Of a stretch of 64,000 nt of DNA, positions 52,523 through 53,138 are shown piece after piece. The stretch's first letter is position 1. Every line of letters starts with the position of its first letter. A model generated the notes under the pieces. The model was not told the origin of the DNA. It saw only the letters and a list, made by a program, of their open reading frames with translations, and searched no databases. Source of the stretch: Escherichia coli (GTDB lineage: Bacteria > Pseudomonadota > Gammaproteobacteria > Enterobacterales > Enterobacteriaceae). Made by a program: the position numbers and the translations under genes. Location: assembly GCF_003334785.1 (NCBI RefSeq), contig NZ_QOWV01000003.1. One strand, written 5' to 3'.

Positions 52523-53101
52523 AATAGAAACTCATTCGAAAAGGGAATGATGCAATGATAATTGCCACAACCTATTTTTACCATCTATAGATGGGTTTAT
52601 TTACATATTATTGGTGAATGCAAGACGTTATTTTTACCAGCCATAAACTTCTTGATTACATAGTATTACGAAAGGATTTTACTGAGAACCAGAAGTAATA
52701 TTCCTTACCATCAAAATTCATCATCTTTGCCAAAGAAAAATGTTCAGAAAATAATCCATGGAAAATTGTCCGGAGCACTTACTATTTTAATGGATTGTTA
52801 GTCTTTGCATGAGCAAGCGAACTGATACATTTCTCTTTGTTCTCATTCAGAAAATCTCATCAGTCGCCGTTCAGACCGGTGTTGTGCTTTATGGATGCGT
52901 TACGCTCCTGATGACGTCATTTGACGTTCAACAGCATCACGGGGCCGCACGACATTTCACGTCAGTTAGTGCTATAGCTCAGGAACAAATTTTCCCGAAT
53001 TGGGATATGCCCGCAAATTGCTGGTGATGTGGGGAGAATCTGGTTGAGTTCGGTAGAATTGATTTGGAGGCAGAACGCTTAAATCGTGGCGTCCTGAAAC
53101 G

Positions 53102-53130
53102 AAAAACGGACCTCCGTGGAGGTCCGTTTA
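53102..53130 (-). terminator. Intrinsic terminator of pheU
   Basis: Reverse strand: aaacggacctcc acgg aggtccgttttt immediately 3' of the tRNA. Confidence 0.8.
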
Positions 53131-53138
53131 TATGAATT

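Follow-up and report, generated by a model that had tools for sequence, protein, structure and literature searches.

Introduction

The closest described systems are the P4-type (CP4-like) integrases of islands at the tRNA-Phe genes pheU and pheV, e.g. WP_001218843.1, which have the same position and orientation to the tRNA as the remnant described here and lie behind a homologous leader; an intact integrase of this type has 421 aa and is strain-variable. For tRNA-associated genomic islands in general, tandem accretion at one tRNA gene is known. The yjdC-cadC interval serves as the pheU site at which PAI (papGII) and LEE insertions are scored (PMC7686366; bioRxiv 10.1101/549998). In this interval, the MG1655 annotation places the pseudogene yjdQ (b4654) at window positions 52779-52941 on the minus strand, and PGAP calls at the same place in other genomes a ‘tyrosine-type recombinase/integrase’ that is frameshifted and incomplete with its N-terminus missing. 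An integrase pseudogene is hence already known here and finding it is ordinary; no paper on yjdQ or on a P4-like integrase remnant was found in the literature searched.

The original prediction had taken the DNA between pheU and cadC for a non-coding segment at an integration site and had pointed to a degraded integrase remnant near pheU in K-12, which is real and is yjdQ. The annotation describes the same object but covers the C-terminal fragment only. Added here are the integrase start region (52975-52943), the leader with the terminator (53138-52976), ∼110 bp of post-integrase DNA, and the assignment of the loss to one internal deletion that is common to several Escherichia lineages. Taken together, the spacer is very probably the fossil of a P4-type element inserted in the 3′-end of pheU, of which the tRNA-proximal end is left.

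Results

Layout of the pheU-cadC spacer

All positions are those of the window, i.e. the whole 64-kb stretch of E. coli K-12 MG1655 DNA that was analysed; a comparison of 7,001 bp (48588-55588) with NC_000913.3 showed no difference, and the window coordinate equals the MG1655 coordinate minus 4309412. The sole tRNA of the window is tRNA-Phe(GAA), pheU, at 53139-53214 (ARAGORN; Rfam RF00005, 68.3 bits), which is located on the minus strand and thus has its 3′-end at 53139. The 512-aa cadC ORF (50984-52522, minus strand) begins at 52522, so that the spacer covers exactly 52523-53138, or 616 bp, and the predicted coordinates proved exact by ARAGORN, Rfam and the ORFs. Its longest ORF has 72 aa, and Rfam at a permissive threshold found nothing besides the tRNA in 50000-56000. 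With 39.6% GC versus 51.1% in the whole window, the spacer is AT-rich, an atypical composition as is expected of an island and a weak sign when taken alone. The features to which the following sections refer are these:

53139..53214, minus strand: pheU, tRNA-Phe(GAA) (ARAGORN, Rfam)
53139-53157/61, or up to 53187 in another island class, pheU 3′-end: attachment core for P4-type islands (partial tRNA copies at island far ends)
53104..53129, minus strand: predicted intrinsic terminator hairpin of pheU, island type (terminator scan, RNA fold)
52976..53138, minus strand: island-type leader between the tRNA 3′-end and the integrase start codon (blastn)
52943..52975, minus strand: integrase codons 1 to ∼10-11, start ATG changed to ATA (tblastn and nucleotide collinearity)
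52779..52941, minus strand: C-terminal ∼63 integrase codons (aa ∼359-421 of 421), i.e. yjdQ, b4654 (tblastn, blastn, annotation)
52668..52778, minus strand: island DNA 3′ of the integrase stop, with hairpin remains right after the stop (E. marmotae island match)
52589..52667, no strand: 79 bp between the island-derived DNA and the cad cassette, with no assigned origin
52523..52588, minus strand: cadC upstream DNA, 5′ UTR and probably core promoter (E. fergusonii match)
52809..53027, plus strand: spurious 72-aa ORF, antisense to the integrase relic
43788..52588, minus strand: cadC-cadB-cadA-dtpC-lysU cassette adjoining the relic (E. fergusonii and E. albertii homology limits)

The spacer holds a P4-type integrase with its middle deleted

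The intact integrase that adjoins pheU in E. coli O121 RM8352 (WP_001218843.1, 421 aa) was used as the reference; it has the P4-type architecture of PF13356 (Arm-DNA-bind_3), PF22022 (Phage_int_M) and PF00589 (Phage_integrase). The translated similarity to tyrosine recombinases that the original prediction proposed to look for is present on the minus strand, in that tblastn of the O121 integrase against the spacer gave three collinear matches with a combined E of 2e-9:

aa 1-11, 52975-52943, minus strand: MALTDAKIRAA versus IALTDVKCRAA
aa 359-391, 52941-52858, minus strand
aa 397-420, 52856-52785, minus strand

The match of codons 1-11 has an E of 0.14 by itself, which is not significant, and its assignment rests on collinearity and on the better-preserved sequences of sister lineages, such as E. 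whittamii, in which ATG and ‘ATGGCACTGACTGAC’ are still intact in the start region. The O121 protein is the best match, with 58% aa identity to the relic in both C-terminal segments, and the C-terminal tail reads ‘...AKINNPLK’ in the intact integrase versus ‘...AKTNNPLK’ in the relic; integrases from five other genera match the same spacer coordinates more weakly. At the nucleotide level, blastn against the O121 island traced homology from the tRNA through the leader, the start region and the C-terminus to the stop codon, with ∼1,034 bp (∼1.03 kb) of the intact gene skipped and the internal deletion junction at about 52942/52943. The relic is thus a whole integrase gene from which one deletion has removed the middle, rather than a mere C-terminal fragment. 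In the pheU island of E. marmotae, the homology runs ∼110 nt past the integrase stop to 52668, with 69% identity and an E of 5e-10 that refers to a small search space; the match of 52668-52778 to the O121 island is weaker.

Decay has gone further than the deletion. The start codon ATG has mutated to ATA (52975-52973), a CAG to TAG mutation makes the stop at 52784-52782, and 16-nt and ∼14-nt deletions, frameshifts and in-frame stops are found as well. Since the relic keeps just aa 1-∼10 and ∼359-421, nearly all of each of the three domains is deleted. As to the residues that we take to be catalytic, namely Arg238, the HxxR at aa 341-344, His368 and Tyr378, the deletion has taken the first two sites, His368 has been replaced, and a 5-codon gap and a stop break up the region around Tyr378. 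With neither the PF13356, PF22022 and PF00589 domains nor the catalytic residues of a functional recombinase, the relic encodes nothing and no recombination is possible from it. As a pseudogene it belongs to the P4-type integrase family by its similarity and by its position and orientation 3′ of the tRNA behind a short leader: the pheU 3′-end and the start-codon remnant, both on one strand, are 163 bp apart, compared with 197 bp in the O121 island. Unlike the intact, strain-variable integrase, it lacks codons ∼10-358 and is nearly universal in E. coli.

That the spacer would be ordinary intergenic DNA in which integrase similarity arose by chance could draw on the shortness of the matched segments (11, 33 and 24 residues), but we give this reading next to no credence and reject it. 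The three segments are collinear, with the order and strand that an integrase next to the tRNA 3′-end would have; the nucleotide homology spans the leader and passes the stop codon; two independent annotation pipelines call an integrase pseudogene; and six different integrases match the same coordinates.

The only ORF of note, 52809-53027 on the plus strand, had been described as having no recognisable homology in a stretch with no convincing ORF, and indeed the ORF is present with zero NCBIfam matches. It has 72 open codons with an ATG, a promoter-like hexamer pair lies 54 bp upstream (52727-52755), and the frame is intact in Escherichia sp. E1V33, all of which could speak for a real small protein. 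However, it belongs to no NCBIfam family, has no visible Shine-Dalgarno sequence upstream and runs antisense to the pseudogene; in E. whittamii it is frameshifted with a stop, and in the divergent lineage L009 the start is lost and the frame shifted; promoter-like sites in the region number 2 versus 2.2 expected by shuffling. A protein product is therefore highly improbable, and the ORF, broken in two sister lineages, was rejected as a gene.

The leader and the pheU terminator resemble those of present-day islands

The DNA between the tRNA and the start-codon remnant (53138-52976) is homologous to the leader of the O121 RM8352 island, with 88% blastn identity over 245 columns including the tRNA. 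Over the first 120 nt after the tRNA there are 7 mismatches, i.e. ∼94% identity to the leaders of present-day pheU islands, so that the leader is far closer to modern islands than the integrase fragment with its ∼58% aa identity. Constraint on this DNA could explain the closeness, as could an integrase of another lineage or recombination with islands that arrived later.

The leader contains a hairpin (53129-53104) that starts 10 nt after the tRNA 3′-end and has an 11-bp GC-rich stem and a 4-nt loop, followed by a UUUUUCGUUU U-tract. Its predicted fold has −19 kcal/mol and z = −4.1, and none of 200 shuffled sequences (0/200) folds as well; it is the only terminator-like structure after pheU, has the features of an intrinsic terminator, and would thus probably terminate pheU transcription. 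The hairpin is conserved in all four Escherichia lineages examined. A near-identical hairpin is found 3′ of pheU in island-bearing strains, in which whatever follows the tRNA necessarily belongs to the island; the second tRNA-Phe gene of K-12, pheV, which carries no island, has a different and unrelated terminator; and among 80 species loci the hairpin sequence occurs almost only where an integrase follows pheU. By these comparisons the terminator hairpin of pheU is of mobile-element origin and not of the native chromosomal type.

The relic is fixed in E. coli, and islands insert between it and pheU

Among 5,426 complete E. coli genomes, the spacer, scored as present when at least 80% of the 616 bp was found in one place, was detected in 5,219 (96%). 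A probe across pheU and the relic was contiguous in 3,737 of the 5,426 (69%), and the junction was interrupted in ∼31%, which bears out the claim that this tRNA-Phe gene is an island integration site. Most of the interrupted genomes, among the matches listed by megablast, match from dicD through pheU to window position 53025 and then diverge, as is typical of the insertion, at the pheU 3′-end, of a P4-type island whose leader is homologous. Strain-specific cargo, which the original prediction expected in this stretch, does occur at the junction, but not within the 616 bp: it sits between pheU and the spacer, and in most island-bearing genomes the spacer is kept nearly intact at the island far end. 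Examples are as follows:

O121 RM8352: ∼30 kb island with efa1/lifA, nleB, nleE and espL2; relic cut by an IS66-family element
strain 142: ∼48 kb island with a Dr/Afa adhesin operon and a CP4-type distal module; relic intact behind a 19-25-nt partial tRNA copy
CP52E: island with a type I restriction gene; relic behind a 49-nt partial tRNA copy
strain J6: relic truncated by IS903B
a K-12-like strain: no island; relic interrupted by IS1

The flanking repeat of strain 142 has just ∼25 nt because its island has a different integrase and leader, and the notion that islands here are always flanked by long leader repeats was dropped on this account.

The variable presence among strains that would be expected of an island was not found for the relic itself, which is fixed. 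The same deletion junction occurs in E. whittamii, in Escherichia sp. E1V33 and in a third divergent lineage (labelled E. coli SCPM-O-B-8794), all with the order dicD-pheU-relic-cadC and each with its own later indels; as the junction is common to these three other lineages, the relic is ancient as well as fixed. The flanking core genes of the three are ∼94% identical to K-12 (∼6% diverged), and the relic is 73-93% identical by segment among Escherichia lineages, with the cadC-proximal 127 bp (52523-52649) as the best-conserved part of the spacer (89-96%). Such a pattern is that of neutral decay since a single ancestral event. The prediction was to be abandoned if no frame had integrase-like similarity and the spacer was conserved throughout E. 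coli. The first of these is not the case, and the idea stands, while the second holds for the most part, given the age and fixation of the relic.

Some observations were made around pheU in other genomes. In E. coli GCA_040036065.1 (12285-12400), dicD-pheU is followed by a pheV-type terminator and the kps capsule cluster, which is normally at pheV, and a sister contig breaks off within the tRNA. Either the chromosome has been inverted by recombination between pheU and pheV, which are identical and face opposite ways, or the assembly was joined across this repeat. E. whittamii has a 671-aa ORF with no NCBIfam match between dicD and pheU (10644-12659), and the same dicD-pheU spacing suggests that it is present in Escherichia sp. 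E1V33 too. The dicD-pheU gap measures 1.5-2.2 kb in many other genera and only 107 bp in E. coli. A divergent DsbD homologue that was followed up came from E. coli with a deletion in dsbD.

No duplicated pheU 3′-end in the window

A duplicated pheU 3′-end (att), which had been suggested as something to look for at this locus, was not found in the K-12 window. No second copy of the last 20 nt of pheU with up to 3 mismatches is present in the 64 kb (expectation 0.00), blastn-short with the last 49 nt gave nothing above chance, and in Hamming scans the best 17-mers had at least 4-5 mismatches and the best 23-mers 7. The 64-kb window thus has no far-boundary direct repeat (attR) of the kind that delimits an island, by which the original extent of the ancient element would be placed. 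In island-bearing strains, partial tRNA copies do adjoin the relic at the island far end, with 19-23 nt in strain 142 and 49 nt in CP52E.

A repeat of another sort, 34-39 nt long, is located at 8749-8787 and, at exact 100-bp spacing, at 16637-16670, 16737-16770 and 16837-16870, and also matches one end of the E. marmotae locus (positions 14-52); it is probably a REP/BIME-type element.

The cadC-proximal DNA

The part of the spacer next to cadC has another origin. Positions 52523-52588 share 91% identity with the 66 bp that precede cadC in E. fergusonii, where this gene is not near pheU, and in Raoultella the homology in the cadC upstream DNA starts at 52577; the last 66 bp before cadC hence belong to cadC and travel with the cad cassette. 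The adjoining 79 bp (52589-52667) gave no significant match to the islands or to the E. fergusonii cadC upstream region and are single copy in E. coli. By distant blastn, 52523-52790 is single-copy in E. coli genomes and is thus not repeated behind modern integrases. The cadC promoter probably lies within 52523-52667; a promoter scan returned no minus-strand candidate for cadC, with the promoter-like count in the region at 2 versus a shuffled expectation of 2.2, and no start-site coordinates were found in the cadC promoter literature. In its part on heat-shock promoters, a genomic-SELEX study lists constitutive binding of a minor-sigma holoenzyme as a peak between cadC and pheU (PMC5493296), and the position 4360430, given in older coordinates, converts to window ∼52675.

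This peak, together with the high conservation of 52523-52649 and the conserved hairpin as the only terminator-like structure after pheU, could mean that the relic has been kept because it was put to use, as the pheU terminator and with its AT-rich tail aiding the cadC promoter or H-NS-type silencing. We consider this unlikely, though well short of untenable. The integrase fragment is fast-evolving, with lineage-specific indels and an identity of 73-93%, as is expected of neutral DNA; E. fergusonii expresses cadC with just the 66 proximal bp in common; and in O121 and strain J6, IS elements separate the relic from cadC.

The cad cassette as possible cargo of the ancient island

The reading of the spacer as the fossil end of a P4-type element can be extended, tentatively: the relic would mark where an ancient pheU island began, and the adjoining 8.8-kb cadC-cadB-cadA-dtpC-lysU cassette, possibly with ghoST, would have been its cargo. 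We regard the extension as possible rather than probable. The five genes behave as a discrete unit in different chromosomal contexts: in E. fergusonii the cassette lies between ycdT and ghrA, with 90.3% homology limited exactly at window 52588 and 43788; in E. albertii it is in another context, with homology that stops 13 bp past the lysU stop, after which a different gene follows; and Raoultella and Pseudescherichia have the same five genes at different places again. Of the 80 species loci compared around dicD-pheU, only those of Escherichia have cadC after pheU. The island-derived DNA of K-12 reaches 52668 and the cassette starts from 52588, with a gap of just 79 bp, at the place where the first cargo gene would be, and the GC is lowered across roughly 42500-53000.

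Two further lines come from other E. coli. The pheU island of strain 142 carries a foreign cadB-decarboxylase-lysS cassette as cargo today. This cassette (NZ_CP048337.1, locus 28534-34708; cadB, lysine decarboxylase, HTH regulator and lysS) has 38% GC and 67-69% protein identity to the resident genes, and is chromosomal in all 33 of the 5,426 E. coli genomes in which it was found, UPEC 536 and F11 among them. Besides, some E. coli are without the ∼10 kb lysU-yjdL-cadABC beside pheU, which was reported as lacking in E. coli with LEE at pheU (PMC3408504) and with which E. coli E69 agrees. In E69 (CP089930.1, 10760-13918), the genes after pheU are a 219-aa ORF and one for a Dcm-type cytosine methyltransferase, an unrelated cassette beyond which lies a yjdJ/yjdI-like segment only 88% identical to K-12, and both the relic and the cad cassette are absent.

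On the other side, no attR was found in the 64-kb window, and no extant island was seen with the resident cad cassette beside its integrase. No other genus examined has pheU followed directly by ghoST/yjdJ/yjdI, and in these genera neither ghoST/yjdJ/yjdI nor cad genes follow pheU. The order of events could also have been another, with the cassette already beside pheU, an island inserting, and later deletions removing the island. Cargo status of the resident cad locus is plausible. The DicD/DsbD-type proteins of E. fergusonii fall inside the E. coli 90% clusters.

Two observations concern the cassette and its boundary. The type V toxin-antitoxin genes ghoS/ghoT (formerly yjdK/yjdO; 43172-43669, plus strand) lie between the lysU end of the cassette and yjdJ/yjdI/dcuS, and a toxin-antitoxin module at this boundary fits a mobile-element past. 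The cadB-cadA genes (47058-50619) have 96.5-96.7% nucleotide identity between K-12 and E. fergusonii, E. albertii and lineage L009, compared with 91.5-94% for the dicD-dcuA flank where comparable, and the CadC protein is only 80% identical in E. fergusonii; the high cadBA identity would reflect either strong constraint or transfer between species.

Discussion

The history that best accounts for the spacer would begin with the insertion of a P4-type element in the pheU 3′-end, in an ancestor that E. coli shares with its nearest sister lineages. The leader of the element would have survived and would now supply the pheU terminator, so that island-free strains likely inherited this terminator from the old element. 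One ∼1.03-kb internal deletion would have left the first ∼10 and the last ∼63 codons of the integrase, which then decayed further, and ∼110 bp of element DNA beyond the integrase stop would have survived. By the time the examined Escherichia lineages diverged, the relic would already have been stripped to about 470 bp. This order of historical events is what we infer.

The intact pheU 3′-end beside the relic continues to be used as an attachment site by present-day P4-type islands. An incoming island restores pheU, supplying its own leader and terminator, and leaves the old relic at the island far end, behind a 19-49-nt partial tRNA copy. When the island brings the same leader, a longer direct repeat of tRNA end plus leader would be expected on its flanks and could allow integrase-independent loss, although this is not universal. 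The arrangement is like the tandem accretion of islands in that a newer island lies between the tRNA and the older relic with a partial tRNA copy separating them; it differs in that the older layer has about 470 bp here and is species-fixed rather than variable.

The finding alone matters little, being an annotated pseudogene at a well-known integration site in the best-studied bacterial genome. It does provide a base-by-base account of the yjdC-cadC interval, which many studies use to score PAI and LEE insertions, and the relic is older than the divergence of E. coli and several cryptic Escherichia lineages, which makes it usable as a neutral marker and as a fixed point from which the turnover of pheU islands can be reconstructed. 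If the cad-cassette lead were confirmed, its evolutionary interest would be moderate: the lysine-dependent acid-resistance locus of the textbooks, the ‘antivirulence’ locus lost in Shigella, would then be a domesticated genomic island.
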